Source: a virus. From it: a DNA stretch of 64,000 nt. Positions 1-29,082 of the stretch are shown one piece after another. Under the pieces are notes generated by a model. It was not told the DNA's origin. It ran no database searches and worked only from the letters and a program-made list of their open reading frames with translations. Location: positions 32,001 through 96,000 of the IMG/VR virus record IMGVR_UViG_3300025133_000027; one strand, 5' to 3'. Positions within the stretch are counted from its first letter, which is position 1, and every line of letters starts with the position of its first letter. A program made the position numbers and the translations under genes.

Positions 1-1141
1 ATGGGATACTAAATTTAAAGAATTTGCATTGAACCCAATCATGTTGCGCGTTATGTCTGGCAACAATATTGACTCGGAAAAAGTGCGTTACCTCGTATCA
101 AGTATTTTTGATATAGATACTTTAAATGCTCAAATGTTTGCTTCAAAAATGAAGAGTAATAAAACTGAATTCACAAAAAAGGAACAAAAAGTTATTAGAT
201 ACCTTGGTGGGGAGAATAGCTATTTAGCATTCAACTTAAGAAAGACAGAACTATCTTGGGTGCTTGCATGTGGAAGAAAGAATTCTGGTTCTGGTAAGTG
301 CAAAGCACTCAAAGAGAGAAACATAAATAACCTATCTGAAATGATTCACCCAAGCGACTTGGTTTTGAAGAAATGGAGAGCTACATCTGGCCACCTAGAT
401 GTTTATAAAAACATAAAAGGAAAAATTAATAAAGATATAGAAAAATTGATAAATCAAAGGGAGCTTTATAAATTAAAAAACCAATCTAACTGGACTCAAA
501 TCAATAGAATACTCCAAGTTTTCAAAGAGATTGGAAAAGGACAAAATAAAGATATACGACAGGCTAGAGACATGGGGCCTTTGCCTATTGGTGTCTATAG
601 AGTCTCTGATTATCAAGAGAAAAGTCATAAGAGCTTCGAGGGGCATTTCAGCAGAAACATGTCAACAAAAGTTAGTGAACAGTGGAAAATAATTAAAAGT
701 CAAAAAGAAAGAAACTTATTGATAAAACTAATGAAAAAATTTAACTTTGTGCCATCTAGGGCACGAGACTCCAAGTCAACTGTCGGAGCTGATGGTAAGA
801 GATACAGAGGTAGACGACCCACTACTTGGAATGTAAGCTCTTTAACTTCAGCAGCTTATGCGTGGGGTCGTCAGAGGATGTGGTTGACCAAACTAAACGT
901 TCCCGATCCGAAAGCTAGAAAAAGAAGCGGATTTTCAATTCACGGCGGCGCTGCTTTCGGCTCTTCTGGGTGTATCGACTTAGGCCCAGCTATGGGTAAT
1001 TTTTCTAGCTTTTATAAAAAAGCGGTAGGTAAGTCTGACATATTACTAATTTCAACCGCTGGAAACCTTCCTAACAGGGTTTCTAAGAAGTATTACTTAG
1101 GCAAAGAAGTTGGTAGCAACGTAGAAGGGGCATCTGTTTAG
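1..1141 (+). CDS. 5'-partial protein with Tlde1/DUF2778-like L,D-transpeptidase-fold domain
   Basis: Frame is open from the window start. Motifs WRATSG, GPLPIGVYRV, AWGRQRMWL and RSGFSIHGGAAFGSSGCIDL (His...SxGC) match the Tlde1/DUF2778 pattern. Confidence 0.7.
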   Translation, partial: WDTKFKEFALNPIMLRVMSGNNIDSEKVRYLVSSIFDIDTLNAQMFASKMKSNKTEFTKKEQKVIRYLGGENSYLAFNLRKTELSWVLACGRKNSGSGKCKALKERNINNLSEMIHPSDLVLKKWRATSGHLDVYKNIKGKINKDIEKLINQRELYKLKNQSNWTQINRILQVFKEIGKGQNKDIRQARDMGPLPIGVYRVSDYQEKSHKSFEGHFSRNMSTKVSEQWKIIKSQKERNLLIKLMKKFNFVPSRARDSKSTVGADGKRYRGRRPTTWNVSSLTSAAYAWGRQRMWLTKLNVPDPKARKRSGFSIHGGAAFGSSGCIDLGPAMGNFSSFYKKAVGKSDILLISTAGNLPNRVSKKYYLGKEVGSNVEGASV

Positions 1142-1815
1142 GATTTATGCACATAAACTAGAATCCCGTTCTTGATTCTATCGAACATTTCTTCTGCAAG
1201 ACTATCGGGTAACATAAAACAACCTGCGCTATGAGTCATACCGTTTGCAGGATGAAAAACGATTCCCCTTTTCAGCGCATTATTATTAATACCACTTTCC
1301 AAACCTTTTAATCTTAAGCTGTAACCATACTTTCCATCATAAGTATTCAAGGTTACAAAACTACCTTTCGAGGACAAATAACTATTTGGAGTATTTGAAA
1401 ACCTACTAGCATATCTCCCTCCAGTCCTAGAAGCATGAGAGACTTTAGATCTAAAAACTGTTTTGTTTTCTTTAGTGTCATAAAGCCAGAATCTTTTAGA
1501 TGTGTATGGTAGATCAAAATTGATTATTGCGATGTATCTTTTATTCTTAACGTATCGCCTAAACTTTCTCTGTTCTTTCTTTGCGATATTAAATATGTTT
1601 TTATCAGTATTGTGTTTTACGTTTGTGCTGTTGTTCGAATTGCTATTTATTTTTATTGTTGCTGAATTCTTTCTAGCCAGTGGCTCATAATAACTGTTTG
1701 CAGTGTTTTTATTGCAATCAGATTCAAGTAACCAATTACATACATGAGAATCATCGTTACCACAAGCAACGAACATTAATAAGGACATTAGTACTAGTTT
1801 TTTCATTTCTATCAC
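1138..1815 (-). CDS. Murein L,D-transpeptidase (YkuD_2-like) lipoprotein
   Basis: N-terminal KKLVLMSLLMFVAC lipobox; FSNTPNSYLSSKG, GYSLRLKGLE, GIVFH...SAGC catalytic motifs. Confidence 0.85.
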   Translation of the reverse strand: MIEMKKLVLMSLLMFVACGNDDSHVCNWLLESDCNKNTANSYYEPLARKNSATIKINSNSNNSTNVKHNTDKNIFNIAKKEQRKFRRYVKNKRYIAIINFDLPYTSKRFWLYDTKENKTVFRSKVSHASRTGGRYASRFSNTPNSYLSSKGSFVTLNTYDGKYGYSLRLKGLESGINNNALKRGIVFHPANGMTHSAGCFMLPDSLAEEMFDRIKNGILVYVHKS

Positions 1816-1883: not shown

Positions 1884-1912
1884 ATTATACTAAATATTTC
1901 GTGGCGAATCAA
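1884..1912 (-). promoter_or_regulatory. sigma70-type promoter TTGATT-17-TATAAT for the L,D-transpeptidase gene
   Basis: Plus strand attata (1884-1889) and aatcaa (1907-1912), 17 bp spacer. Confidence 0.6.
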
Positions 1913-1997
1913 CTAGAAAAAACTTGGGCTTGGTAAAAGCAAAAGTCACTAAATTCAGCGGAAATAAATCTGCTGAACTAATCACAAGAAAAACAGA

Positions 1998-2010
1998 ACT
2001 ATTTACTATA
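1998..2010 (+). promoter_or_regulatory. Candidate phage late-promoter motif (A)CTATTTACTATA
   Basis: Directly abuts the ATG at 2010 with no SD. The same 12-mer CTATTTACTATA occurs at 50452-50463 upstream of gp25. Confidence 0.4.
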
Positions 2011-2759
2011 TGAAGAAACTTAAACGAATTTTAAAACTAGCAGAAATCAATTATGTCAATGCCAGAAACCCACATAGACATATTCCAAATAGAAATATTA
2101 TCCGTGCCAATACTATGTTTATGCTGTCCATTCTAAAAGCTAATATCCAAATAAGAGACATATTCGGTTTACATATAGGAAGAGATGAGTGGCTTAAGTC
2201 AACATTTGATATTGTAAAACAAGTTTCATTATTATCAAAATCTAAAATAAAAAAATTCTTAGGGAATGGTGCTTTCGGTGCAGCTTTTGAACTTGACAAC
2301 GGCAGGGTTTTGAAAATCGGGCGTATCCTGGATCAGGAAACCTCAAGAAAAAGTTATACTGGTATCCTATATGGTAAGTATGATGAACCAGAATTTAAAG
2401 ATATTTCAGTCAAAAATACGCTCCCGGTATTTGATAGTGGCGTCATTAAGAGACCTAGCAATTGGATTAACCGTAATCTTCAATGGTCTGAAATACCTCT
2501 CCTGAAGATGCTAGATTGGGAACAAAAGGAAGCCTGGGACGAGTTATCTGATCTACTTCATTTTATTGATGACCCTCAAGAAATTGCGAGTGTAATCGAT
2601 ATCATGGACACCAATATATTAGATAAAATCGGTGATAAAGAATCTATCATCAAAGCATTAGAAGCAACCTGCACTCTTGAGGGCGATCTTGGTGATGTTC
2701 ATGCAGATAATGTAGGACAGTTTATTCAGTCGGGAGAATTTGTCGTATTCGACAACTAA
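2010..2759 (+). CDS. Minimal protein-kinase-like domain protein (paralog 1)
   Basis: LGNGAFGAAFEL.NGRVLKI Gly-loop/Lys, DVHADNVG catalytic loop, ends VVFDN. Confidence 0.75.
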   Translation: MKKLKRILKLAEINYVNARNPHRHIPNRNIIRANTMFMLSILKANIQIRDIFGLHIGRDEWLKSTFDIVKQVSLLSKSKIKKFLGNGAFGAAFELDNGRVLKIGRILDQETSRKSYTGILYGKYDEPEFKDISVKNTLPVFDSGVIKRPSNWINRNLQWSEIPLLKMLDWEQKEAWDELSDLLHFIDDPQEIASVIDIMDTNILDKIGDKESIIKALEATCTLEGDLGDVHADNVGQFIQSGEFVVFDN

Positions 2760-2770
2760 ACTATTATACT

Positions 2771-3637
2771 ATGAATGATCTAAAAAGAATATTATTGTTA
2801 GCAGAAATTAACTATATTGATGACAGAAATCCTCAAAGACAGGTTCTAAACAGGAACAACATTCGCTCAAACACATTGTATCTCTATAAAAAGCTTTTAC
2901 ATAATTTTCATCTTAGAAAAGTTTTTAGAATCAATAGTCCAAGAAATGTAAATCTAGATGTTGACGAGTACAAGAAAGAAATTCTTAAAGTTATATTTAA
3001 TATTGTAATTCAAGTCCCTCTACTTTCTCAATATAGAATCGTAAGCGTCCTTGGATCTGGTGAACTTGGGTTGGTTCTTGAAATAAAGAATGGACGAGCA
3101 TTAAAGATTGGATACGAGACAGCCTGGGAAACTCCCAAAGAGAAAAGTGTTGCTATCACATATAATATGAATGGCGAAGATCCTGATATCCTTACTTTAA
3201 ATAAAAACCTGTTACCTATTTTTGGAAATGGAACAATCAAAGTAGATAAGAAGTCTACTCTATACTTCAAAGATCGCTATGCTTTTGGGAAGGAAGGCTC
3301 TAATATGTATTGGACAGAGATTCCTCTCTTGCAAATGCTTTCTATTGATGAAAAGCACATCTGGGATAGCGTTCATTATAATACAAAGACATATCTAATG
3401 AATCTTGGAAAGGAACATTTGTTTAAAAATCCTCAAGAATTAGAATCTGAAATTATTGAAGATCTTATTAAATGGTCTACAACTAGGACACTTAGCACAG
3501 ACGATCGACAGGTTCTCTCAAGAATGATGAAAGCTGTTCTTGCTCAGGTTAAAGTTGATGGCCATTTTAAAGATGCCCACGGTGACAACGTAGGTAAGTT
3601 TATTCAGTCCGGTGATTATGTAGTCTTTGACAATTAG
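2771..3637 (+). CDS. Minimal protein-kinase-like domain protein (paralog 2)
   Basis: LGSGELGLVLEIKNGRALKI, DAHGDNVG, ends VVFDN; N-terminus similar to paralog 1. Confidence 0.75.
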   Translation: MNDLKRILLLAEINYIDDRNPQRQVLNRNNIRSNTLYLYKKLLHNFHLRKVFRINSPRNVNLDVDEYKKEILKVIFNIVIQVPLLSQYRIVSVLGSGELGLVLEIKNGRALKIGYETAWETPKEKSVAITYNMNGEDPDILTLNKNLLPIFGNGTIKVDKKSTLYFKDRYAFGKEGSNMYWTEIPLLQMLSIDEKHIWDSVHYNTKTYLMNLGKEHLFKNPQELESEIIEDLIKWSTTRTLSTDDRQVLSRMMKAVLAQVKVDGHFKDAHGDNVGKFIQSGDYVVFDN

Positions 3638-3644
3638 GAGAAGT

Positions 3645-4508
3645 ATGGATAACTTAGAAAGAATATTGCGTTTAGCCGAGATCAACTATGTTTCTGGAAG
3701 AAACCCTCAGAGGTATGTTCCGAATAGGAATATCCTTAGGTATAACTTCAACAGAATTATTGAAATATCAAAAGACCATCAGGCAAATACTTTTGCAAAG
3801 AATCTAGGAATAGCTGCAATAGAAAAAAGGGATCCATATGGCTGGATGGGTCTTTCTTATGAAGCAACTCCCAAGAAGGTGTTCACATTACTAACAAAAA
3901 TTCCATTGCTATCACAATACAAGATCGAAAAGATGCTCGGAATGGGATATTTTGGAGTTGTTTTTAAACTATCTAATGGTAGAGCACTTAAAATTTCTAG
4001 AGAAATCACGCAAGATTATTCAGAGAATGGTAAGTATGTTGGGATAACTTATGGAGATGATAAAGTCCATCAGATGTCAGTCTCAACTTTTGCTGTTTTT
4101 GATCATGGAGAATTTGATGAGGAAGGACTAAAAGGATCATGGTCCGAAATTCCGCTTATAGAACCTCTTAAGAGAAATGATAAGGAGCTCTGGAGACAAA
4201 CTGGTTTTGGTTTCGGCTATCTAGCACGGAAACAAAAAATTGCATTTCATAACGCCATGGATAGTGATGACGAAGATAAGATGATGCATGAAATATTCAA
4301 CCTAGGAATTCCGAAGTATCAAACTGTTTGGGTTGGTGGTCCAGAATATAAAGACTATGCAGAAACATATGGTATAAGAAAAACTCGAAATATGATCAGA
4401 GCTTATATGACAAGATATAAAATTGATGGACACGTAAATGATGCTCATGATGGCAATGTTGGAACACTAATCCAAGATCCAGACGTTTACGTTATTTTTG
4501 ATAACTAG
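3645..4508 (+). CDS. Minimal protein-kinase-like domain protein (paralog 3)
   Basis: LGMGYFGVVFKLSNGRALKI, DAHDGNVG, ends VIFDN. Start moved to ATG 3645 (AGGAG SD; matches paralog leaders). Confidence 0.75.
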   Translation: MDNLERILRLAEINYVSGRNPQRYVPNRNILRYNFNRIIEISKDHQANTFAKNLGIAAIEKRDPYGWMGLSYEATPKKVFTLLTKIPLLSQYKIEKMLGMGYFGVVFKLSNGRALKISREITQDYSENGKYVGITYGDDKVHQMSVSTFAVFDHGEFDEEGLKGSWSEIPLIEPLKRNDKELWRQTGFGFGYLARKQKIAFHNAMDSDDEDKMMHEIFNLGIPKYQTVWVGGPEYKDYAETYGIRKTRNMIRAYMTRYKIDGHVNDAHDGNVGTLIQDPDVYVIFDN

Positions 4509-4516
4509 GGATAATT

Positions 4517-6505
4517 ATGACAATCAAACTTATCATAGAAAGTAAAAAACTGCTTCTTGAAAAAACACTAGAACAAGTCGAAGAACGCTTTAAATCGAAG
4601 AGATTTCTTAGGCTCATGGATAAACTATATGGCGATGATCCAGATACTATGCAGTCATACCATATGAGCTCTATCACAGTAATCCGAAGACAAATTCCTA
4701 ATGACATACCAGAGAAGGATAAAGCTGAAGCTTTAGATTGGCTTATTAGCCAAGTTATCAAAGCTCAAAAAATACCAGATGTTTATAGTGGCTTCCTAAA
4801 TGTTAAACAAGATCTAGAGTTTTTCTATCTAATCAAAAACTCAGGGCAATCAAGATTCTTGAGCGTTAAGTCTCTTATGAAGGTTGCTCAATGGGATGAA
4901 CTTGAGGATATCGTTGACGATGCCCAGCCTAAGTACGAAGAGTGGGATAATGAAAAGCAAGAGAAGGAGCTTGCTAAAAACGGCGGTGGTGAAGGTGTTA
5001 ATCATATTGTAAAAGACAATCCTGATTGGGATGTTTATATCCCTGAAACTCAATTAGCTGCACGGTTTCTCGGAAGGGGCACAAATTGGTGTACAGCAAC
5101 CAATCCAAAGACTTCAAGAAACTATTATGATCAATATCATACAGAAGAAAGTCCTTTATATATCTTTATCAGCAAAGCTAATCCCACTGATAAATATCAG
5201 TTCTCATACGCTAAACATGATTTTGCTAATAAATCAAATAAACAAGCCAAAAGACCTAAATTTCTTGAATTAAATGAAATAATTAAAAATATTGGTGAAC
5301 CTATAATCACTTCGTTTAATCTTAATAAAGCGAATAAATATGTTTTTAAAAAATTAAAAAATGGTGGCTATTCGTATTTTGTGGGTAATGTAAAGAAGTG
5401 GTATTTAAAAGGAGACCTCCATCGTGAGGACGGACCTGCTTTTATTGATTCTGATGGTTCTCAGTTCTGGTATTTAAAGGGTAAACTTCATCGAGAAAAC
5501 GGTCCTGCTGTTGAATATCAAAATGGGGAAAAGGAATGGTATCTGAAAGGTAAGCGCCATAACAGAAATGGCCCTGCTATAGAATATGTGCATGGTGGAA
5601 AAAAGTGGTTCATAAATGGTATGCAGTATACCGAATCAGGTTTTAATTTAAAAGAATGCAAGGGAAGTAAAAATATGAAGAGGCAAGAACCAAAAGAACT
5701 TAACGAATCAAGTTCAATGATCGGAATGACTATCAGAGAAGGTTACGAACTTCTTAAATCTTTTGAAGGAAAAAATCTTATCTTCTTTGATACCGAAACT
5801 ACTGGCTTGCATCCGAAAAACTCACAGATTACAGAAGTTGCTGTATTTGTTGGTCATCTTCCAAGCTGGTCTGAGGGTATAAATGAGTCATCATTTATTA
5901 AATTTCATGAAAAAGCAAAGCTTACTCAGCAAAGTCTTGGTAAACTTAAAGAAAAAATGTATGGTGATAAGACTTATCGTGAACTACTTCGTATGACGAA
6001 TTATGGTCAACACGGAAAGAAGTATCTTCTTGAAGGAGTAATGCTAAAAGATCTAAAAGACTTCATTGAACAGTTTGAAGATCCAGTTTATGTAGCTCAG
6101 AACGCACAGTTTGATATGAAAATGATAAACACAAGATTAGCATCATATGGATTGGAACCTTTAAACAGGGCTCCTGTTCTTGATACTAAATCAATTTTGT
6201 CTTTCTTCTTGAAACCAATATTTATGACATCAAAAAAGAATACAAGAACCTATGATGTTAGCACAAGGGTTCCCGAGAAACGTGGTTCTATGTCAACAAG
6301 TCTCGGTGATATAGCAGCCGCTTTCGAAATCTCAAATGATAACTGGCACTCCGCTGACGCTGATGTTCTTATGATGATTAATGTGTTGCAACAAGCTGTA
6401 AAAATATTCGAACTTGAAGAGTATGATATAGAACAAGCTAATCAACTCGCAAGCGGAGAGCAGAAGAGTTATGTAGATAAGGGGAATAGGCACTATGTCA
6501 ATTAA
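4517..6505 (+). CDS. Modular protein: GTNWCT domain + LHREDGPA repeats + DEDDh 3'-5' exonuclease
   Basis: LGRGTNWCTA; three W-x-x-x-G-x-x-H-x-x-x-GPA repeats; FFDTETTG, AQNAQFD, HSADAD exonuclease motifs. Confidence 0.8.
   Translation: MTIKLIIESKKLLLEKTLEQVEERFKSKRFLRLMDKLYGDDPDTMQSYHMSSITVIRRQIPNDIPEKDKAEALDWLISQVIKAQKIPDVYSGFLNVKQDLEFFYLIKNSGQSRFLSVKSLMKVAQWDELEDIVDDAQPKYEEWDNEKQEKELAKNGGGEGVNHIVKDNPDWDVYIPETQLAARFLGRGTNWCTATNPKTSRNYYDQYHTEESPLYIFISKANPTDKYQFSYAKHDFANKSNKQAKRPKFLELNEIIKNIGEPIITSFNLNKANKYVFKKLKNGGYSYFVGNVKKWYLKGDLHREDGPAFIDSDGSQFWYLKGKLHRENGPAVEYQNGEKEWYLKGKRHNRNGPAIEYVHGGKKWFINGMQYTESGFNLKECKGSKNMKRQEPKELNESSSMIGMTIREGYELLKSFEGKNLIFFDTETTGLHPKNSQITEVAVFVGHLPSWSEGINESSFIKFHEKAKLTQQSLGKLKEKMYGDKTYRELLRMTNYGQHGKKYLLEGVMLKDLKDFIEQFEDPVYVAQNAQFDMKMINTRLASYGLEPLNRAPVLDTKSILSFFLKPIFMTSKKNTRTYDVSTRVPEKRGSMSTSLGDIAAAFEISNDNWHSADADVLMMINVLQQAVKIFELEEYDIEQANQLASGEQKSYVDKGNRHYVN
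5395..5640 (+). repeat. LHREDGPA-type protein repeats (3 units + cap)
   Basis: WYLKGDLHREDGPA / WYLKGKLHRENGPA / WYLKGKRHNRNGPA / WFINGMQYTE. Bounds approximate. Confidence 0.85.
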
Positions 6506-8915
6506 GATTATATTAAGAGAAAGTAAAAAACTTCTTCTTGAAGTAAAATTAGAAGACGTTAAGAAGAGATTTAGATCTAAGAAATTCCTTCGAGTTTTTA
6601 ATGAAGAATATATGAGAAATGACGAAGAGAATTACCCAGGGGATGAACCATACGCATCCCATGAGGACTTTATAACTGATATTTCCACTGTGATGTTGGA
6701 AGTAATCCCCCATGATATACATGAATCTGCGCAAGCAGAGGCTCTTCAATGGCTTATTTCTCAAGCTATATTAGTCAAAGAATATGATTTCAGAGGAACT
6801 TTTTTTAAGAAAGATATTGAAAACTTTTATAAGATAAAAAACGGAAGATCTCAGTTTCTAGAAGAAAAGAGTTTAAATAATATTGTTGCATTTGCTCACT
6901 TAAGAGACATAATTGAAGAGGCTCTTCCTAAATATCTTAACTGGATCCGAGAAAAAGCTGATCTGTCAACAAAGGGGAATGGTGTCAACCTGATTCATCG
7001 AGGTGCTGTTTGGGAAGTATTCATTCCAGAAACTCGGGGAGCTGCTATCCGACTTGGTGCCGGCACTAACTGGTGTACTGCTGCTAGGCCAGGAGCACGA
7101 AACGAAAATCTGTATGATCATTATCATAGTGAAGAAGCTCCACTATATATCTTTATCAACAGAAAAGATCCTGCTGAGAAATATCAATTTGCTTATACCC
7201 ACGATGAGTTCATGGACAGGACCAATGAAGATTGCAGAAATACTTCTAAATTCTGTGATATGAATGAAATCATCAAAGGCCTTGGTCCAAGGATGATTAC
7301 CTCACTTAACCTCGCAGAAGCAAAAAAACAAAAATATAAAAAAATTGGGAAAGGTTACTATCTTATTGAAAAAGAAAAAGGTAATATTGCTTATGTCAAC
7401 AAACATGGCTATCATAACGAAGACGGTCCTGCCGTGGTTTCCAATTATGGTGCAGAAAAAGAATGGCATCAAAACGGGAAACTTCATCGTAAAGACGGGC
7501 CGGCTTTCATACGAAGAAAGCCGAAACTTGAAATGTGGTTCCAAAATGATATGAGACACCGAGAAGATGGTCCTGCTTTAATCAGCAGTTCAGGCCAGGA
7601 AGAGTGGTATCTGAAAGACAAGAGACACCGAAAAGATGGTCCCGCTTATTCTACAGATACAAAAGAAATATGGTTTCTGCATGGAGAAAGGCATAGAGTC
7701 GGAGGCCCCGCTCTTACTGTACACAAAGAGCTTGTCAGCATGAGTAGAATCCTCCACGCTTTCTATCAAAACGGGAAACTCCATAATGATGATGGGCCTG
7801 CCGAAGTTTATTACACTGGTGAAAAGAGGTGGTATAAAAACGGAAACCTCCATAATGAAAACGGCCCTGCAAGAATTGCTTCAAACGGGGTTTCGACTTA
7901 TTATCTTGATGGCGAACGAGTGCCAGCCCCAAACGAAGATCCAGCTAGGTTTAAAATCTTAAAAAAATATCTTGGGTTTGGGAAACCACCCGAGCGTGAT
8001 GACCCAAAAAGGAGACTTAGGTGGCTCGATGAAGCTCAACTTCCAGCAAAAGAACCAATTGACCAAGATGACCACCCATTATTCCCAGAAGAGGCAAACC
8101 GCAATATTTTAAGACATAACGTTAAATTTATCTTTCACGAACTTAAAAACTCAAAACATGCAGTGAGGACTGGTTTGCCATTGATAAACGATATGTTTTT
8201 CTTTGGCATGGCAGATGGCCTTTACGACCAATTGCGGGATATCCACTATGAAATTGCGGATATCGAAACTTCAGATCCATATTTTCATGAAAAAAGGGAG
8301 TCTTTAAGAAAAGAATATTCTAAAAAATGTTTTAAGACTGTTTTTAACACTGTTGTTCAAACCCCTCCCCTTAATAGCTCTAAGATTGTAAAACATCTTG
8401 GATCTGGTGCAAATGGAGTAGCTTATGAGTTAGCTTCTGGTCGTGTCTTAAAGATTGGCAGAAGTGAATATGGAAAAGACTCTGGCCTCGCTCGTATGAC
8501 TTTTGGTGATGAAGAAGACGAGTATTTTAAGAACGTTTCAATTAGCAAAAACTTTATGCCGGTGTTTGCCGCAGGTAAATATAAAGAACCTGTTGGTGGA
8601 AATATCTCTTGGAGAGAAATACCTTTCTTCAATATGCTTACAAACACAGACAAGAAACATTGGAGTATTCTTAAAAAACTAATGGATATTCTTATTAATA
8701 GACAATTTGATGTTCTCAACTACAAACCAATTCAAATCATAAACTTAGCAAAACATTTTAAAATCCCAATCAACAGCTCTCTTGAGACAAGTGAAGGAAT
8801 GATCCGAGCAATGCTTAAAGCTCTGGAGGTTTATGGAGACCTCCATGACGCCCACATAGATAATGTTGGGACCCTAGTTCAAGATCCTTCTACTTATGTG
8901 ATCTTTGATAACTAG
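6495..8915 (+). CDS. Modular protein: GTNWCT domain + LHREDGPA repeats + minimal kinase domain (paralog 4)
   Basis: LGAGTNWCTA; seven H-x-x-x-GPA repeats; LGSGANGVAYELASGRVLKI, DAHIDNVG, ends VIFDN. Confidence 0.8.
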   Translation: MSIKIILRESKKLLLEVKLEDVKKRFRSKKFLRVFNEEYMRNDEENYPGDEPYASHEDFITDISTVMLEVIPHDIHESAQAEALQWLISQAILVKEYDFRGTFFKKDIENFYKIKNGRSQFLEEKSLNNIVAFAHLRDIIEEALPKYLNWIREKADLSTKGNGVNLIHRGAVWEVFIPETRGAAIRLGAGTNWCTAARPGARNENLYDHYHSEEAPLYIFINRKDPAEKYQFAYTHDEFMDRTNEDCRNTSKFCDMNEIIKGLGPRMITSLNLAEAKKQKYKKIGKGYYLIEKEKGNIAYVNKHGYHNEDGPAVVSNYGAEKEWHQNGKLHRKDGPAFIRRKPKLEMWFQNDMRHREDGPALISSSGQEEWYLKDKRHRKDGPAYSTDTKEIWFLHGERHRVGGPALTVHKELVSMSRILHAFYQNGKLHNDDGPAEVYYTGEKRWYKNGNLHNENGPARIASNGVSTYYLDGERVPAPNEDPARFKILKKYLGFGKPPERDDPKRRLRWLDEAQLPAKEPIDQDDHPLFPEEANRNILRHNVKFIFHELKNSKHAVRTGLPLINDMFFFGMADGLYDQLRDIHYEIADIETSDPYFHEKRESLRKEYSKKCFKTVFNTVVQTPPLNSSKIVKHLGSGANGVAYELASGRVLKIGRSEYGKDSGLARMTFGDEEDEYFKNVSISKNFMPVFAAGKYKEPVGGNISWREIPFFNMLTNTDKKHWSILKKLMDILINRQFDVLNYKPIQIINLAKHFKIPINSSLETSEGMIRAMLKALEVYGDLHDAHIDNVGTLVQDPSTYVIFDN
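7392..7920 (+). repeat. LHREDGPA-type protein repeats (7 units + cap)
   Basis: HNEDGPA, HRKDGPA, HREDGPA, HRKDGPA, HRVGGPA, HNDDGPA, HNENGPA. Bounds approximate. Confidence 0.85.
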
Positions 8916-8935
8916 AGACTACTAAACAGAGTTCA

Positions 8936-8950
8936 AATCCTCGCAGGATT
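8936..8950. terminator. Small hairpin between convergent genes
   Basis: aatcct-cgc-aggatt in the 42-bp gap between the 8915 and 8958 stops; short stem. Confidence 0.3.
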
Positions 8951-8957
8951 ATAATCT

Positions 8958-9248
8958 TTAAAAAAGGGGATACCTTTCTATCTTATTTAGATAGAGATTA
9001 TCTAAAAGTTTTAATATACTTGAATTTTTAAATATAACATTCTGGCTCTCAAATCCGGCAGTAATATAATGACAATAGCACATGCCCATATCAATCACAA
9101 AAATTACTCTCTGACGTTCATTAATAGTGAATACAAGCCCATTGATTCTTTGACTATAATCTAAATAGGTCCTTTTATTATGACTCTCACTCGGGCAAAC
9201 AAGTAAATCATTTCGATAAAGATAACTAAGCACTGATTCTTTTTTCAT
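8958..9248 (-). CDS. Hypothetical protein
   Basis: 96-aa ORF overlapping the upstream minus-strand ORF by 4 nt (coupled). Confidence 0.5.
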   Translation of the reverse strand: MKKESVLSYLYRNDLLVCPSESHNKRTYLDYSQRINGLVFTINERQRVIFVIDMGMCYCHYITAGFESQNVIFKNSSILKLLDNLYLNKIERYPLF

Positions 9249-9448
9249 GATTCTCGAAAGACGGGGTATTTCTTACCCGGCTTGGTAATTCTCGAAAGCT
9301 TTGCACCAGACCAAACCTCAGTAGGACCTGTCGAAGGTATTCCATACACGGAATAATAATCGAAAACAGGGTTCCACTGGACTACTAATAAGGGCTTGTC
9401 ATGCTGATTGTTTCGAAAGCTAAATTTTGGATTAGAGCTACTATACAT
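9245..9448 (-). CDS. Hypothetical protein
   Basis: 67-aa ORF whose start overlaps the ligase stop codon. Confidence 0.5.
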   Translation of the reverse strand: MYSSSNPKFSFRNNQHDKPLLVVQWNPVFDYYSVYGIPSTGPTEVWSGAKLSRITKPGKKYPVFRES

Positions 9449-10617
9449 TAGGTGTCCTTTGGTTCTCTAAACCTCAGACCGACAGGGAACCTTGGGATCT
9501 TATCCTTGGACTTACCAAAGAATTTTACAGTAAGTTGCTTCCCAATAAACTTGTGACCATTTCGGAACCACTGCCCTCTTTGTTCATAGGTTCCCTGTGG
9601 CACGACATAAAACTCCCCACCCTCGGGCGTTTCACACAACCATCGCACACAGCCTTTAAATTTACCTTTACCTTCATCAAAAGCAATCACCTTGAACTCT
9701 TCATCATCAAAAGATTTAACTTTCAAAAGGTAAGGAGATCTATAGCCAAATCTGTATGGACCTCTGGCATCTCTAACAATTGCTCCTTCATAAGAATTCT
9801 TAACATAAAACTCATGTGCAATAATGACATCTTCCTGTTTTTCAACAGGAGTAGAATTGACCATTATAGTATTTTTGAGCTTCTTGTTATCTGCAAAAAA
9901 CGCTCGCAATTCGGCCTCACGCTCTGTCCAGAGCAATCCCATTCTGTCTCGGTCAACTATATCATAGACATGGAATTGAACCCGCTCAGAGCCCTCCTGT
10001 GGCCTTTTAACCAAAGAGGAGAATACTTGAAATTCTTCTCCGTGAATGTATAGTTCACCATCTAGAACTTGGTTGCCAGTAACTGTGAGTTGCAATTCAT
10101 CAGAAATGTGTTTTACACTATATTCATCACCAGAGCGAGACATCATAACGAATTCACCGTTATCGTCCCAAAAAGCAAAGCATCTTACCCCATCTAACTT
10201 TGGCTGAACAGTCGCTGGGTATCGAACATACTTTGTCTTCTTCGCAAAGTCATGCGCAAGCATAGGCCGAATTTTAGTTTCAGTGTCTGCGACCTCTTCG
10301 GACAAAGAGTATTTTCTTTTTAGTTTGTTTTGGAACAAAGCTTCGGCTTCCTTTTCAGCTTGTTCGATTGGTGTTGTAGCATTTACTTTGCCAACATTCT
10401 TAGCCTTAGCCTTCTTTCCGGCAGAGGTTTGTAGTTTACCACCTTTAACCCCGTGTTCGGTAAAGATAATATCTTCCTCAGTGTAAACTCTCCACTGGCG
10501 AATCTCGCCTTTGGAACCTTTGTGGTATAATACGGGTGATTTCATCATTATGTTTCCTATAATAAAAATTGCTAAAATGAAGCAGAAAATGCTTTTAAAA
10601 ACCTTATCAGTCATCAC
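9448..10617 (-). CDS. lig: ATP-dependent DNA ligase with N-terminal WGR-like domain
   Basis: PMLA, QPKLDGVRC (motif I KxDG), LDGELY, FHVYD, EGAIVR, LLKVK, and C-terminal OB domain ending PRFPVG. Confidence 0.9.
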   Translation of the reverse strand: MMTDKVFKSIFCFILAIFIIGNIMMKSPVLYHKGSKGEIRQWRVYTEEDIIFTEHGVKGGKLQTSAGKKAKAKNVGKVNATTPIEQAEKEAEALFQNKLKRKYSLSEEVADTETKIRPMLAHDFAKKTKYVRYPATVQPKLDGVRCFAFWDDNGEFVMMSRSGDEYSVKHISDELQLTVTGNQVLDGELYIHGEEFQVFSSLVKRPQEGSERVQFHVYDIVDRDRMGLLWTEREAELRAFFADNKKLKNTIMVNSTPVEKQEDVIIAHEFYVKNSYEGAIVRDARGPYRFGYRSPYLLKVKSFDDEEFKVIAFDEGKGKFKGCVRWLCETPEGGEFYVVPQGTYEQRGQWFRNGHKFIGKQLTVKFFGKSKDKIPRFPVGLRFREPKDT

Positions 10618-10683: not shown

Positions 10684-11016
10684 TTATTTTCTAATAATAG
10701 GAAACTTTCCTACTATCTCCAACCTATTATCATTCAGAGTGTTTTTAAATCTTTCGAAAGAGATGTATTCTTGGTAACAATATCTTTCTTCTATATCAGC
10801 TTCTTCATCCCAAGCAGAGAAGTGAAGCATGATTGCATTTCGCTTTCTTCTATTAACGACTACCTTATCTAATAATAATATTTTTTTATAACTAAACCAG
10901 AACATAGCCTCATTCGGTTTATCTCGGTATATAGTACCTACCAAAGCCTTAACTTCCTTCTCTCTTAAAAGCTTTTCTGTTTTAGACAAGTTTTTGTAGC
11001 TTTCTACATATTTCAT
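10684..11016 (-). CDS. Hypothetical protein
   Basis: 110 aa, AAAGGAGAA SD upstream, TATAAT at 11045-11050 on the minus strand. Confidence 0.6.
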   Translation of the reverse strand: MKYVESYKNLSKTEKLLREKEVKALVGTIYRDKPNEAMFWFSYKKILLLDKVVVNRRKRNAIMLHFSAWDEEADIEERYCYQEYISFERFKNTLNDNRLEIVGKFPIIRK

Positions 11017-11106
11017 ATCATTCTCCTTTATTTCATCTTCCTTTATTATAGCCTAATAAAAACTTTTTTGCGATGGCCATGCAACCTTTTGACTACTTAT
11101 AGTGTG

Positions 11107-11328
11107 ATGAAGATGTGCATTAAGGTTGGGGCAGTTTACGTTCTTGAATCATGGCAATCAACTATTGTTATCACTGATCTATGTAGTGAAAATATGGTTT
11201 CTTTTCAGGTAGTAAACGGTAGTGATAAGAATAAATATAGTCACACCGTTTCCTGGTTTATTGATGGGATTCACAAAGGTAAATTATTTTTCAAATTTAA
11301 AATGCCAGTTTTTTATTCAACGAAGTAA
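11107..11328 (+). CDS. Hypothetical small beta-rich protein
   Basis: Likely start ATG 11107 just after an ACTACTTATA motif; MKMCIKVGAVYVL N-terminus. Confidence 0.45.
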   Translation: MKMCIKVGAVYVLESWQSTIVITDLCSENMVSFQVVNGSDKNKYSHTVSWFIDGIHKGKLFFKFKMPVFYSTK

Positions 11329-11870
11329 TTTGGTAAATTCCGTACAAGTGTGTCTTCCTTTGGATATAAAAAGCGTTTTTGCAGGATTAGGTTAAAATTT
11401 GATTTCGGATCTACATAATTTAAATTGCTCTTCGCAGCCATGAAGCCTGTCTCACTATACACTAAAAAATAAAATTCATCTATTTTTTCACCTCTATATT
11501 TGGATTCATCAGGGCGGATAAAAGTAAGTAACCTCCCACCGTTATCGAGTCTTAAAATCGTGGCATTGTGTCTATAACTTTTAAATGGAATTAGGAGTTG
11601 TCCTAATAAGCAGTCAATACTTTTTCTAAGATATCTAGCGTATCTGCCAGAAACGAATACGGTCTTTCCATCGAGCAAGCTGGAAGCAATTTTGATTATA
11701 TGAGCAACTTCGAATTCTCTAATGCTTGAATCTCCTAAGATAAGCACCTTACCTTCTTTTTTATTGAGGTAAGTAATATACTCAATCAGCTTCAAGATCG
11801 GTATAGCCTTCTGGAATCTTTCCACTTTAGTCCAGATAGTTAAAGCTTTGAGCATATCATCTCTTTTCAT
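11313..11870 (-). CDS. Hypothetical protein, possibly a degenerate terminase-ATPase-like fragment
   Basis: LRLDNGGRLL...YRGEKIDEFYF resembles the terminase 'LxNGS...RG...D' region; no intact Walker A. Confidence 0.45.
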   Translation of the reverse strand: MKRDDMLKALTIWTKVERFQKAIPILKLIEYITYLNKKEGKVLILGDSSIREFEVAHIIKIASSLLDGKTVFVSGRYARYLRKSIDCLLGQLLIPFKSYRHNATILRLDNGGRLLTFIRPDESKYRGEKIDEFYFLVYSETGFMAAKSNLNYVDPKSNFNLILQKRFLYPKEDTLVRNLPNYFVE

Positions 11871-12130
11871 GGTTTAAATCCTGGCATTATTAGCATTGAT
11901 TCATGAAAAGAAAAAGAACGATCTGCAAAGCTTGATTCTTTTCGGTTTGGTATTCCCGGTAGGTTCCTATATAGTTTTATTACGTCTCGTCTTTCGGTTG
12001 GAAGCATAAGCAAACACTGGAATGTCTTTTGTTTCATTTTGCTTACTCTAACTTCTGTGATAATAAATAAGCCATTTAAGTAGCTTATCGGGTCTCCTTT
12101 TTTAAGTGTCCTTACTTGATTTAAAGTCAT
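11867..12130 (-). CDS. Hypothetical protein
   Basis: 87 aa, AGGAGG SD upstream, coupled to the downstream ORF. Confidence 0.6.
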   Translation of the reverse strand: MTLNQVRTLKKGDPISYLNGLFIITEVRVSKMKQKTFQCLLMLPTERRDVIKLYRNLPGIPNRKESSFADRSFSFHESMLIMPGFKP

Positions 12131-12166
12131 TTTTCCTCCTATTTATTATGACTAAAACTTTTACAT

Positions 12167-12195
12167 ATTATACAATACTATATATTATAGTGCAA
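12167..12195 (-). promoter_or_regulatory. sigma70-type promoter TTGCAC-17-TATAAT
   Basis: Plus strand attata (12167-12172) and gtgcaa (12190-12195). Confidence 0.6.
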
Positions 12196-12225
12196 TGCTG
12201 ACTAAGTCAGGGAATTTATATACGA

Positions 12226-13251
12226 ATGAATTTTAAAATATTAATAGAGTCTGCTGCAACGGTTCCCCTAAAGGGACGACCAGCTCGCGACAATCAAAGA
12301 AGAAGCTTGGCTAACTCACCCGAACCCGAACGTCAAGAAGCCTTGTCTGATGTACAGGCTTTTAATTTTTACTTCTTATCAAACAATTTTGATAGCTTAA
12401 GTGTTTTATTAAATTATGATACAAGGGCTGGCAACGGTAAGACTAGACTAATTCGAGCGCTAGTAACAAAGATCCCACCATTATCCTCAAATAAGATTAT
12501 TAAAAAACTAGGAGCAGGGTCGTTTGGAACGACTTTCTTGTTAGCGAACGATCATGTTCTTAAGTTATTTATGGGGGGCCTTGATGACCATTCGAACTGG
12601 GATGTCGAAGGTGTTCGTGACTTAAATCGATATGAAGAATTAGCGAAGAGTCAGTTTGACAAGAAAGCTTTAAAATCAGATCTGATGATTTATGATTCAG
12701 GTTCTATAAAATTTAAAGGGTCGAGCTCTGGTCCAATAAGATTAATTAACTATGCAGAAATGCAAAAATTAGTGACACTTGTAGAATTTTACAAACTTTG
12801 TATAAAAGATAAAATTACATCTTCAAGACAGAAGATATTTAAAGTAATGCCAAGAAGTTATAATCCTTATGCACCAGAACTGAATAGCGATATTGCTACA
12901 TTGAAAGACTTAGCAAGAATACTTTATTACAAGAAAAAAACAAGAAATACTGAGGAATTTAATGAGGAAATAAGAAGACATAGCCAGTGGGGATTCTATG
13001 CTGACCAAGCACTTTATTCCATAGTTAGAAAAAAGGGCACACTAGAGGTCGTTAGAACACATTACTTAGAACGCAATTTAACTGAAATTCTTGGTAGTAT
13101 GAAGATTCTTTCTGTTGAGTTTGGAAAGATTCTTCTAGTTCAAATGGTAAAGGTTTCCAAAACTAACCTCATGAACCTCAGAGATGTTCGTCCATTAAAC
13201 ATTGGTATCCTTCCTCAAGATAGCTTCACCCCCGTATTATATGATTACTAG
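12226..13251 (+). CDS. Divergent minimal kinase-like protein (paralog 5)
   Basis: KIPPLSSNKIIKKLGAGSFGTTFLLANDHVLKL, DVRPLNIG, ends VLYDY. Confidence 0.7.
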   Translation: MNFKILIESAATVPLKGRPARDNQRRSLANSPEPERQEALSDVQAFNFYFLSNNFDSLSVLLNYDTRAGNGKTRLIRALVTKIPPLSSNKIIKKLGAGSFGTTFLLANDHVLKLFMGGLDDHSNWDVEGVRDLNRYEELAKSQFDKKALKSDLMIYDSGSIKFKGSSSGPIRLINYAEMQKLVTLVEFYKLCIKDKITSSRQKIFKVMPRSYNPYAPELNSDIATLKDLARILYYKKKTRNTEEFNEEIRRHSQWGFYADQALYSIVRKKGTLEVVRTHYLERNLTEILGSMKILSVEFGKILLVQMVKVSKTNLMNLRDVRPLNIGILPQDSFTPVLYDY

Positions 13252-15458: not shown

Positions 15459-15911
15459 ATGTTAATGTTTATAAATGTTATTATCAGCATCGTTGCACTA
15501 CCAATCCTTCTAATCTTTGGGAAACCAAAAAAGGTAAGATTCGCAAAGCATTACTTATCTCCAAGATTAAATAAGAGATTTAGAATCTGCAAGTGGACTC
15601 CAGTATTAGAACTGGAATCAAGAGACTGGTTCGCAAGAATCCAAGGAAACTCTCACATTGCAGCAAACGCTGTCTTATGCTTTATGATTTACCGTAAAGA
15701 GTTCAAAGATAATTCAAAGACACTTATGCACGAGACAATTCACATTATTCAACAGTCATACTTCACACCAATCTTAGTTGGTCTAGTTTATGCGATTGAT
15801 GTGTTTATCTTCCTTCCTTTCCAACAGTGGTATCCTGAAAATTATATCATGAAAATCTCAGTTATTGAGAGACTAGCTTACGATCTAGCTGAGGAAAAAG
15901 ACAATGGATAA
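15459..15911 (+). CDS. Membrane-anchored HExxH (zincin-like) protein
   Basis: Hydrophobic N-terminus, LMHETIHIIQQ, distal ERLAY. Confidence 0.55.
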   Translation: MLMFINVIISIVALPILLIFGKPKKVRFAKHYLSPRLNKRFRICKWTPVLELESRDWFARIQGNSHIAANAVLCFMIYRKEFKDNSKTLMHETIHIIQQSYFTPILVGLVYAIDVFIFLPFQQWYPENYIMKISVIERLAYDLAEEKDNG

Positions 15912-17529
15912 GAAAGATTTCACAAGATTTATTGACAAACCAGAAGCTGCAAAGGTTGATGGTGTTCGCTTAACAGAGAACTTTTTTAAGATCCTTAGAG
16001 AAGGAAAAAGCAATCGTATGATGATTGCTGGCGATAGTCAAGTATATCATACAGGCGGAAGTTTAAAGAGAAAACTAGATGCAAAGGGTTATAACGCTTT
16101 TTTGAATTTTAAAAGTGGAGAATCTACTGGAATGACTATCGTTCGACTTTCAAAGGGAAAGAGTATTAGCCTATCGTTAGTGGTTATTTTAACTGGTGGC
16201 AATAATCCAAGTGCAGCTTATACAGCTAAGAGATTACCAAGGTTAGTTAAAGTAATAAATGATAAATTTGATAACCCAGAGATTATCTTTGGTTTAACAC
16301 CTCCTCTTACTGGAAGGATGGTTCCATATCATGAAGATATGCAGAACAAGAGACAGGAGATTGCTTCAACGATAGCAAACTTTTGTAAAGAAAATAGTAT
16401 TAACTTCTTTGACCCACGTTCATTTATGAAGGATCCCGCATCTATTACTGGCGGTGACGGCCTCCATGTTCAAGGTGCCAATGCAGATAGGTTCGCAAGT
16501 GGAATTCTCAGCGCTGCATCTTTTGGTGATGCTACGAGAGGAGAAAGTGTTGAAGATGATACTTCGAAAAGTACAGAAGACCGAGGACTTGAGCGGTTAA
16601 GGTTAAATGATAGACAACTTATGGGTCTTAATTTTGGTGATAAATTGAGATACGCAAAAGCTAGAGCTAGGAAGTGTGATGCCGCAGGTTATCTTGGTTT
16701 TGGTTCTAATGGGCCAGAGATTCTAAGATTAAAAAAATCGCTCTCAAAATTAGGCTATAATCTCGACACCAGTAACGATTCTTTCGACACTGATTTCCTT
16801 GCGAACGTAGTTGCCTTCCAGAAACACAATGGTTTAAGGCAGGACGGCTGTGTTGGACCAAGCACGGCTGATTGGATCTTGGAGAAAGCTAAAAAAGCTT
16901 CTGAAAAGAAAGATCCAAATGCTTCACCAGATTCAAAACCAAAACATAGTAGCTTACGTAAGAATGAAATTACTGATATGATTTATAGAAAATATGCTAA
17001 AGCTGGCCTAAACAAAAATATTGCAGCGGCTGCAATCATAAACAGTCTCGCAGAATCAGGTTTAAAATATTATTTAGTTGGTGATGGTGGCAATAGTGTT
17101 GGGTTATTTCAACTCCACAGGGGGAGTAAGAGTAGACCCTTTTGGAAAAGTGCAGGTTTAGATCCAGACATTGCATACGATACCCGTAAACAGTTTAGAG
17201 AATTATGTAAAAGTCAAAATCTACCACCGGGAGGGTATAAATGCTCGGTTAGGGCTTCGGGAATGAAAGAGTTCGCCCGCAAAAGAGAACGTGCTGGTGA
17301 TTGGAGATTCAACCCGGAAAGAAACACAGAAGCAATTATTAATATTGAAGTCAAAAGAGGGGCTGGTAGAAAACTGAGATCTGCTGACAGAGCTGGTGCA
17401 TCAATTCCTGAGCTTGCTGCTATATTTTGTAGGGATATTGAACGACCTGCAAATAAGAGTAAGGGAATGCGGAAGCGACGAAAAATAGCAACAAAAAAAT
17501 TTGGAAACAGAAGATTACCTGACAGTTAA
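15904..17529 (+). CDS. SGNH/GDSL hydrolase + peptidoglycan-binding domain + phage tail lysozyme-like domain
   Basis: IAGDS, GGNN, DGLH (SGNH); LGFGSNG...FQKHNGLRQDGCVGPST (PGBD); AAAIINSLAESGL...GDGGNSVGLFQLH...DIERPA (lysozyme-like). Confidence 0.75.
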   Translation: MDKKDFTRFIDKPEAAKVDGVRLTENFFKILREGKSNRMMIAGDSQVYHTGGSLKRKLDAKGYNAFLNFKSGESTGMTIVRLSKGKSISLSLVVILTGGNNPSAAYTAKRLPRLVKVINDKFDNPEIIFGLTPPLTGRMVPYHEDMQNKRQEIASTIANFCKENSINFFDPRSFMKDPASITGGDGLHVQGANADRFASGILSAASFGDATRGESVEDDTSKSTEDRGLERLRLNDRQLMGLNFGDKLRYAKARARKCDAAGYLGFGSNGPEILRLKKSLSKLGYNLDTSNDSFDTDFLANVVAFQKHNGLRQDGCVGPSTADWILEKAKKASEKKDPNASPDSKPKHSSLRKNEITDMIYRKYAKAGLNKNIAAAAIINSLAESGLKYYLVGDGGNSVGLFQLHRGSKSRPFWKSAGLDPDIAYDTRKQFRELCKSQNLPPGGYKCSVRASGMKEFARKRERAGDWRFNPERNTEAIINIEVKRGAGRKLRSADRAGASIPELAAIFCRDIERPANKSKGMRKRRKIATKKFGNRRLPDS

Positions 17530-17561
17530 TTAAAAAGTTTTAATATAAGGATTTAAATAAA

Positions 17562-18212
17562 ATGAATGCAAATGAATATAACAGAAAAAGGCTTAGAAGC
17601 GGAGATATTCCAGATAGTGTAATAACTAAGATGGTAGAGCTTTGGCAAGAAGAGCACGGTCTTGATGTCGATGGTAAGCTTGGCCCGATAACTTTAAAAT
17701 CAATTGGAGCCGAGACAACTTTCGAACCTGATTGGACTACTGATTCTAAGAGAAAGTGGGCAGAAGAACTTTACGGAGCATTCCGCTTTAAGAGCCAACC
17801 TAACGGTAGAATCGTAATTTCATCAACATGGGTCAGAGAAAACATTGTAAGAGTAGAATTACATAACGGAAAGAAGGTTCGCATCAATAAGAAGATTGCA
17901 GAACACTTCAAGACTACTTTTAAAGAAGCATGTGAGAAATCTGGCTATACACCAAATTCTGTTCAAACATTTGTCCCGAGACACACCCTCTGGAATACTA
18001 GCAAATCAGTAAGTGCTCATAGTTGGGGTTGTGCTGTGGACTTTGATCCTCCAAAAAACCCAATGGGCGGAAAAATCAAGAAAACAGGCAGGCCTTCTCT
18101 TCTCAGAACACATCCAGAATTTGTCAAGGTTTTCAAGGATGCTGGCTGGACTTGGGGCGGTGATTGGCGCATGAAAGACGATATGCATTTCGAACTCAGG
18201 AAGGAGCTTTAA
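17562..18212 (+). CDS. Endolysin-like: PG-binding domain + M15 family peptidase
   Basis: WQEEHGLDVDGKLGPIT; SAHSWGCAVD; WGGDW...DDMHFE. Confidence 0.85.
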   Translation: MNANEYNRKRLRSGDIPDSVITKMVELWQEEHGLDVDGKLGPITLKSIGAETTFEPDWTTDSKRKWAEELYGAFRFKSQPNGRIVISSTWVRENIVRVELHNGKKVRINKKIAEHFKTTFKEACEKSGYTPNSVQTFVPRHTLWNTSKSVSAHSWGCAVDFDPPKNPMGGKIKKTGRPSLLRTHPEFVKVFKDAGWTWGGDWRMKDDMHFELRKEL

Positions 18213-18217
18213 GATCC

Positions 18218-20074: not shown

Positions 20075-20084
20075 GGGACTATTA

Positions 20085-28864: not shown

Positions 28865-29082
28865 GAGAATATAAAATACACGCTAGATGCAATAAGACTT
28901 CTAGTATAGTAGATAGAAATATAGAATTAAGGAACTTTGATTGTGCATACTTAGCAGGTATTAATATGATTAAGCAACTTAATACCAATGAGGATTCTGA
29001 ATATGAATTACTTGGAGTATATGAAATTTTATATAACGTTGAAAAGTACAAAAGCATTACAAAAAGGAGCAAAAATGCGTAA
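28861..29082 (+). CDS. Hypothetical protein
   Basis: 73 aa, fills the gap between purA and clpP with overlapping start/stop. Confidence 0.5.
   Translation: MREYKIHARCNKTSSIVDRNIELRNFDCAYLAGINMIKQLNTNEDSEYELLGVYEILYNVEKYKSITKRSKNA

Follow-up and report, generated by a model that had tools for sequence, protein, structure and literature searches.

The tandem genes and their domains

This analysis concerns a pair of tandem genes, P0001 and P0002, on a 64,000-nucleotide stretch of viral DNA (the window), which corresponds to bases 32001–96000 of the 176,254-bp IMG/VR virus record IMGVR_UViG_3300025133_000027, judged 97% complete. Positions are those of the window, where the tandem genes with their parts and the kinase-like genes lie on the plus strand; G000 marks positions in the full record. 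The phage is a T4-like myovirus with a G+C content of ca. 36%. Its record encodes a gp23-type major capsid protein and a gp21-type prohead protease (Peptidase_S77, PF03420; 81.2 bits; G000 114952–115374), and homologs of baseplate-wedge proteins and PhoH are found within the window. P0001 (4517–6505) codes for a protein of 662 amino acids (aa) composed of a leader, a conserved N-terminal part referred to as the trunk, three repeats and a DEDDh exonuclease. P0002 (6495–8915) codes for 806 aa arranged as leader, trunk, seven repeats, an internal leader and a kinase-like domain. The end of P0001 overlaps the start of P0002 by 11 nucleotides (nt).

The two proteins are 41% identical over 430 alignment columns (BLASTP, E 4e-84) and share an N-terminal part of ca. 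390–430 aa. All sequence motifs which an earlier note on this DNA, made from the letters alone (the original prediction), had listed for both open reading frames (ORFs) are indeed present, namely ESKKLLLE at residues 8–15 of P0001 and 9–16 of P0002, and the RFKSKRFLR/RFRSKKFLR, IP.DI...AEAL.WLISQ, GTNWCTA and KYQF segments in both; the repeat counts given there, three and seven, are likewise correct. The trunk, with a conserved size of ca. 260 aa, extends from 4562 to 5350 in P0001, with an AlphaFold2 (AF2) model and the family alignment as evidence, and from 6543 to 7340 in P0002, with the GTNWCTA segment at nt 5078–5098 and 7062–7082, respectively. According to the model (predicted local distance difference test, pLDDT, 89), the trunk consists of a helical bundle (residues 1–154) and an α/β domain (residues 160–278). 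Throughout an alignment of 76 trunk regions G186, T189, W191, C192, T193 and A194 are invariant; H208 is conserved in the close subfamily only. The trunk is followed by MORN-like repeats of the form W-x-x-G-x-x-H-R-x-[DN]-G-P-A, which occupy positions 5399–5620 in P0001 and 7412–7874 in P0002. Their units comprise 23–24 residues ending in [DNG]GPA and recur with a period of 66–72 nt. Matches of the repeats to MORN_2 (E 0.14) and DUF6745 (E 0.024) stay under the cut-off; DUF6745 matches four trunk relatives. Just upstream of the window (G000 27942–29315) lies the gene for yet another trunk paralog, the third, which has 457 aa and four repeats but no enzyme. Repeats of the HREDGPA type also stand at the beginning of two free-standing proteins of 264 and 172 aa encoded before the window (G000 225–1019 and 1020–1538), both of which lack a trunk.

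The C-terminal end of P0001 (5711–6505) was correctly predicted as a DEDDh 3′-5′ exonuclease. It matches Pfam RNase_T (PF00929) with 41.3 bits, above the cut-off of 24 (E 2.9e-10), as well as PHROG 192 (E 8.7e-20), and contains all three Exo motifs in the form of FFDTETTG (D-x-E, nt 5783–5806), NAQFD (N-x-x-F-D, nt 6101–6115) and HSADAD (H-x4-D, nt 6347–6364). P0002 ends in a kinase-like domain (8037–8915) with the segments GSGANG (8400–8417), VLKIG (8445–8459) and DAHIDN (8847–8864) and the sequence IFDN before the stop codon. As originally predicted, this end is homologous to three stand-alone genes just upstream (37% identity, E 4.6e-26). These are free kinase-like gene 1 (2010–2759, 249 aa, leader MKKLKRILKLAE), gene 2 (2771–3637, 288 aa) and gene 3 (3627–4508, 293 aa counted from a TTG codon, with the leader MDNLERILRLAE starting at residue 7). 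A fifth and more divergent member lies at 12226–13251 (341 aa) and carries the leader MNFKILIE and the C-terminal end VLYDY.

No matching Pfam or PHROG family was found for the kinase-like domain, and a profile search through 1.84 billion representatives yielded 297 relatives. The AlphaFold model of the family, built on 81 relatives (pLDDT 88), retrieved 317 kinases from the PDB with Foldseek at E ≤ 0.001, with a probability of 1.00 for the top matches listed. Complete or almost complete conservation applies to the Gly-rich loop, the Lys, the D-x-[HR]-x-x-N loop and the final Asp, and the model displays a bilobal kinase fold with the β3 Lys, the catalytic-loop Asp/Asn and the metal-binding Asp. 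The C-lobe, however, is incomplete, as the chain ends one residue past the Asp equivalent to that of the DFG motif, so that the activation segment and helices F–I are missing; [FY]-D-x forms the C-terminal end in ca. 125 of the 150 best relatives. Judged by the model, the designation as a kinase is right with respect to the fold, but the fold is present in a form without the whole region following the DFG motif. Hanks-type kinases possess the activation segment and helices F–I, whereas the family described here ends before them and has an N-terminal helical extension instead, which raises the question whether half a kinase fold can catalyse phosphoryl transfer.

The trunk family and the exchange of its C-terminal parts

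Trunk loci in IMG/VR were collected with the patterns GxGTxWCTA and KYQF and subsequently confirmed, which resulted in at least 354 loci. For the trunk of the window proteins neither a Pfam nor a PHROG family was recognised, a Foldseek search gave no match in the PDB at E ≤ 0.001, and a shape search of the ESM Atlas retrieved only Uroviricota clusters of hypothetical proteins. The trunk defines a large, phage-only and uncharacterised family. When the trunk and the kinases of the window were compared with GenBank phages at the DNA and protein level, nothing was found; only a more typical family member used as query reached the jumbo phages of the PA5oct-like group, CcrBL9 and SCTP-2. Tandem trunk paralogs as in the window occur in 7 of 80 loci.

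The suspected similarity to PcfJ recurs in several analyses, each time at a low level. PcfJ is the only Pfam family matched by several trunk members (6 of 76, below the cut-off, best E 6.6e-4), and it is carried by 26 of the 30 nearest named clusters when ESM features are compared; the PcfJ hidden Markov model (HMM; PF14284), however, matches neither the window proteins nor any other protein of the genome. In an hhalign comparison of the trunk with a PcfJ alignment of low diversity, WCTA is placed opposite HCVG over 52 columns with a non-significant E-value of 0.13. Inspected by eye, the trunk and PcfJ of plasmid pCF10 share a strand-helix-x-C-x-x loop followed by a Tyr and a strand-Lys-turn-strand element; the window proteins reach no HMM threshold. 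On these sequence comparisons, a kinship between trunk and PcfJ appears probable. The PcfJ literature offered nothing on function. On pCF10 (10874–12984), PcfJ directly adjoins a gene of the AcrIIA9 family annotated as Cas9 inhibitor, and a gene of the DpnD/PcfM family is close by. This neighbourhood provides a lead towards PcfJ-like domains among counter-defence genes which enter a new cell together with DNA.

The predicted combination of a constant trunk with a varying C-terminal part holds across the family. The post-trunk regions of 66 proteins fall into 30 unrelated clusters, and the Pfam families detected in 72 non-redundant members comprise DUF4116, DUF6745, several LRR types, LRV, ANK, HEAT and WG repeats, inorganic pyrophosphatase and exonuclease. 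With 30 unrelated clusters, the architectures are therefore diverse and by no means fixed. Both combinations of the window recur independently in distant phages, the trunk-exonuclease fusion in one (contig L024; E 1.7e-30 to the exonuclease of P0001) and the fusion of trunk and kinase-like domain in two further proteins (in L030, and P0089; E 1.3e-44). Two differing trunk-repeat proteins of other contigs, P0012 and P0015, end in the same basic, Cys-rich tail of ca. 75 residues (KPSSETNLGDWFKRKG...CNTCRDGKCKPCG...), which constitutes a further shared cargo module.

Two related contigs document the gain and loss of modules between close phages. In L096 (ENA ERZ1046740, 32.9 kb), which matches the window DNA at 2759–4530 (90%) and 5697–8749 (96%) in blastn, two kinase genes come first, followed by a free exonuclease of 272 aa and then a trunk-kinase protein of 806 aa. 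The free exonuclease is 96% identical to residues 394–662 of P0001, and its start MTIKLNES corresponds to codons 1–5 of P0001 joined to codon 396 onward. The junction alignment shows that the segment 4531–5696, comprising trunk and repeats, is absent exactly in frame from this relative (390 codons, allowing for a 4-nt overlap). In L099 (Logan SRR25203943) the exonuclease, 94% identical, is also free and starts with MINES, and the gene at the position of P0002 encodes a trunk protein of 376 aa with one repeat and without a kinase. Origin of the P0001 trunk by recent duplication was considered and is ruled out by its identity of only 45–55% to other trunks, compared to 90–96% between its flanks and the relative. 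As the trunk is not a recent copy, its loss in the L096 relative is the simplest reading. The exchange of the C-terminal enzyme is thus real, since the same enzymes occur both with and without a trunk among close relatives, and the modules are gained or lost in frame at leader and junction sequences. The exonuclease exists naturally in three states, fused to the trunk, free with a prefix of seven residues and free with a prefix of four residues, which offers a ready-made test of the contribution of the trunk. The enzyme-less trunk gene P0008 of L099 (7998–8823) looks chimeric: over its first ca. 120 nt, which are contiguous with the exonuclease, it corresponds to the start of P0002 (86%), and its core matches the trunk of P0001 (74% in DNA; 55% in protein vs. 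45% to P0002).

Two details of the original prediction have to be revised. The breakpoints fall at the leader and the [LI]NE junction instead of inside the repeats, and the copy number of the repeats is the same in close orthologs (806 vs. 806 aa and 457 vs. 458 aa). Direct repeats in the region 1900–9000 are confined to paralogous stretches of only ca. 70% identity, so that there is no sign of ongoing cassette switching within this genome.

Relocation also affects kinase-like gene 1. Its cassette (1997–2760) is found in L096 in front of the gene for a 763-aa protein, and both junctions lie inside the motif AACTATTTA. At 1998–2006, 12 nt before kinase gene 1, the window carries the promoter-like motif ACTATTTAC, which differs by one mismatch from ACTATTTAT. 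The latter, which is also the site of the cassette junctions, is enriched on the plus strand of the genome (13 seen vs. 2 expected), with a single copy on the minus strand, and is positioned 17–50 nt before the genes for scaffold, sheath and other proteins (G000 30820, 114537, 116633, 119877, 125034 and others); we regard it as a candidate promoter. Hyperplastic regions of T4-type phages are known for the modular shuffling of single accessory genes in PeSL cassettes (PMC2839356, PMC4122927). The present case resembles PeSL shuffling in that single accessory genes have been inserted, deleted or relocated between close relatives, with junctions in short conserved regulatory motifs. It deviates from it in the motif, PeSL being composed of a sigma-70 promoter and a stem-loop, and in that one of the events took place within a coding sequence, where modules were exchanged in frame at the leader and the [LI]NES junction.

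Leaders, junction motifs and the possible fate of the proteins

Trunk and kinase-like proteins have in common a short, amphipathic leader that ends in the tripeptide [LI]-x-E. The leader of P0001 (4517–4561; MTIKLIIESKKLLLE) includes an L-I-E and an L-L-E site and is a candidate capsid-targeting propeptide. The trunk proteins start with M-x-I-K-L-I-I-E-S-K-K-L-L-L-E, in which LLLE ends at residue 15 in P0001 and at residue 16 in P0002, and the free kinases with M-x-x-L-K-R-I-L-x-L-A-E, in which LAE occupies residues 10–12. Both kinds of leader thus have the properties of T4-type propeptides, namely a length of 10–19 aa and an end of the form L/I-x-E. Among 82 trunk proteins and 133 kinase-family proteins, 94% and 92%, respectively, have [LIVM]-x-E within their first 25 residues, against a background of 38% among all 217 ORFs of the genome and of 42–47% after shuffling. 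Within the genome, a block of 18 ORFs, selected after inspection of the data, contains the motif in 12 members vs. 26 of 127 ORFs elsewhere. In the trunk model the mean pLDDT of residues 1–10 is 68, compared to 84–97 for residues 11–80, and the kinase model begins with a leader helix of lower confidence followed by a low-confidence linker.

Sites of the same kind recur between the modules. P0001 contains ELNES (5696–5710, residues 394–398), in which L-N-E is a candidate prohead-protease site, directly before the exonuclease. In P0002 an internal leader-like stretch (7950–8036; FKILKK ... RRLRWLDEA) with L-D-E at residues 511–513 precedes the kinase-like domain. The original description of a divergence of the two proteins at an LxE site is thus roughly right, with the site being ELNES at 394–398 in P0001 and WLDEA at 510–514 in P0002. 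Both the free kinases and P0021 have N-terminal leaders to which the internal stretch of P0002 can be aligned. From this it follows that the fused protein contains a whole leader-bearing unit. Trunk proteins devoid of an enzyme show ALNES and QINEG junctions, each followed by only 11–12 residues, and the fusions of distant phages carry AELNES (L024) and an internal leader FVKE (L030).

In phage T4, gp21 cleaves after L/I-X-E, propeptides of 10–19 residues bring otherwise unrelated internal proteins into the head, and the 76-kDa protein Alt is trimmed at both ends (PMC9026906, PMC3012670). On this basis we propose, with a probability of roughly 45%, that P0001 and P0002, two paralogs of a large, phage-specific modular family, are packaged effectors processed by the gp21-type protease. 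The leader would act like a T4 capsid-targeting sequence, and the proteins would be made late and loaded into the prohead. A gp21-type protease would then cut after [LI]-x-E, thereby removing the leader and freeing the enzyme from the trunk, and the pieces would leave the head together with the DNA and, as infection begins, attack host targets to serve take-over of the host or counter-defence. Since they are provided with the same kind of leader, the free kinases would be handled likewise. Loading, cutting and ejection are suggested by the leader motifs, by the T4 precedent, by the co-occurrence of the trunk with Peptidase_S77, and by a homolog in the jumbo phage PA5oct, EST35_0205, which contains the segment GKGTRWCTAA and is annotated as a structural protein on the basis of ESI-MS/MS.

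The closest known kinds are represented by the capsid-targeted internal proteins of T4 and by the modular shuffling in T4-type hyperplastic regions. As in the case of the T4 internal proteins and Alt, we find a T4-type setting, a gp21-type protease, short L/I-x-E leaders, a diverse and non-conserved cargo of enzymes or inhibitors and an Alt-like size. Unlike in T4, a domain of ca. 260 aa and repeats are inserted between leader and cargo, the candidate sites are internal in a polyprotein-like manner, and packaging and cleavage are putative. The novelty lies in the large conserved trunk, in the internal junction sites and in the family's breadth.

A number of observations weigh against packaging. 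Presence in the virion and cleavage are extrapolated only from the PA5oct homolog, which is distant (over 160 residues, ca. 28% identical to a different member of the family). Peptidase_S77 is encoded by 17 of 20 large trunk-carrying phage records, a proportion given without a base-rate control. The motif [LI]-x-E comprises three residues and is common by chance, and its counts among the trunk and kinase families are not independent but inflated by shared ancestry; the leader itself may be just the first helix of the fold. The L099 exonuclease is preceded by MINE, a prefix too short for targeting, so that packaging is not required for this enzyme, and, to judge from the invariant Cys loop, the trunk may itself be active rather than serving as a carrier only. 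With regard to late synthesis, the T4 late promoter TATAAATA is not enriched in the genome (10 seen, 17 expected), and kinase gene 1 is preceded by an imperfect copy of the alternative motif, at a distance of only 12 nt from the ATG.

A different scenario is considered less probable than packaging but is the strongest of the alternatives. The proteins might be unpackaged multi-domain enzymes of the cytoplasm, with the trunk as the working part, either a PcfJ-like Cys enzyme or a DNA- or protein-binding module, whose action is directed or extended by the C-terminal repeats and enzymes, and with the N-terminus as an ordinary first helix. Six residues between G186 and A194 that are invariant in 76 sequences are typical of an active or binding site; moreover, most relatives carry protein-binding repeats (LRR, ANK, HEAT, LRV, WG) and not enzymes. 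The PcfJ matches (6 of 76 members and 26 of 30 ESM clusters), the AcrIIA9-family neighbour of PcfJ on pCF10 and the free L099 exonuclease with its four-residue prefix point in the same direction. On the other hand, no His or acidic partner for the Cys is conserved family-wide, the hhalign relation to PcfJ is not significant, and neither the recurrence of [LI]-x-E at the junctions and in an unrelated kinase family nor the virion detection in PA5oct is explained. The latter finding would be accounted for if the trunk were an anchor at the virion surface or tail with an exchangeable distal domain for host contact, as in fibres and spikes; phage receptor-binding proteins classically combine a conserved N-terminus with a variable C-terminus, and binding repeats such as LRR or WG form the end of many relatives. 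Outside the cell, however, there would be no substrate for an ATP-dependent kinase fold or a DEDDh exonuclease, the trunk model is without features of a trimeric fibre or a β-helix, and the genes are located at a distance from the genes for baseplate and fibres in this genome, which makes such an anchor improbable.

The original prediction had favoured a polymorphic-toxin-like architecture, in which an exchangeable toxin would be delivered by trunk and repeats, with the free kinases as a recombining pool of cassettes. The constant N-terminal part, the repeat spacer and the variable C-terminal enzymes agree with it, as do the varying presence of modules between relatives and the different place of kinase gene 1 in a related phage. 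In Rhs and contact-dependent inhibition (CDI) toxins, too, a constant N-terminal part is followed by repeats and, behind a conserved junction motif, by a C-terminal enzyme that varies. In contrast to these systems, neither a secretion apparatus nor 5′-truncated orphan cassettes are found here, and the setting is a lytic T4-like phage and not a bacterial competition locus. No known secretion or trafficking domain was detected among Pfam, PHROG and PDB folds, and an immunity gene downstream is missing, P0001 being followed by P0002 and P0002 by ORFs on the opposite strand. Repeat numbers are fixed between orthologs. The free kinases are complete genes upstream with their own starts and leaders; at 37–44% protein identity, mutually and to the fused copy, ca. 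70% DNA identity and without long identical tracts, they do not represent a recombination-ready cassette pool. From the original prediction, the constant trunk with exchangeable ends therefore persists, and the toxin frame, for want of an immunity gene or trafficking domain and in view of the age of the paralogs, is not supported; of all scenarios we regard it as the least probable.

If packaging applies, we would tentatively extend it to the family as a whole, a generalisation clearly less secure than the proposal for P0001 and P0002: in T4-type and jumbo phages, the GTxWCTA trunk might serve widely as a “loading dock” which brings very diverse enzymes and binding modules into the capsid in the form of cleavable polyproteins, each cargo being freed by the prohead protease at [LI]-x-E junctions and then injected with the DNA. 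Injected phage proteins act before phage gene expression and are prime candidates for counter-defence; to our knowledge, very few of them are known outside T4 and some jumbo phages. If true, these phages would be equipped with a large arsenal of effectors that are made in advance and can evolve, half-kinases and an exonuclease among them, and the recognisable N-terminal module with its leader and junction rule would allow hundreds of candidate packaged effectors to be read from genomes.

Neighbouring genes

The window begins with the end of the gene for the 763-aa protein (1–1141), the C-terminus of which shows faint Tlde1/YkuD-like matches; relatives of this protein give a weak match to PG_binding_1. 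A YkuD_2-type gene follows on the opposite strand (1138–1815, minus strand), and the pair is kept in both related contigs. Downstream of the trunk genes, a 389-aa ORF (9448–10617, minus strand) resembles an ATP-dependent DNA ligase by eye only and has a hydrophobic N-terminal stretch. Further along, the region 15904–22235 codes for three large proteins of 541, 636 and 716 aa with short stretches (60–110 residues) similar to PHROG families annotated as endolysin, the last of the three carrying two such stretches.

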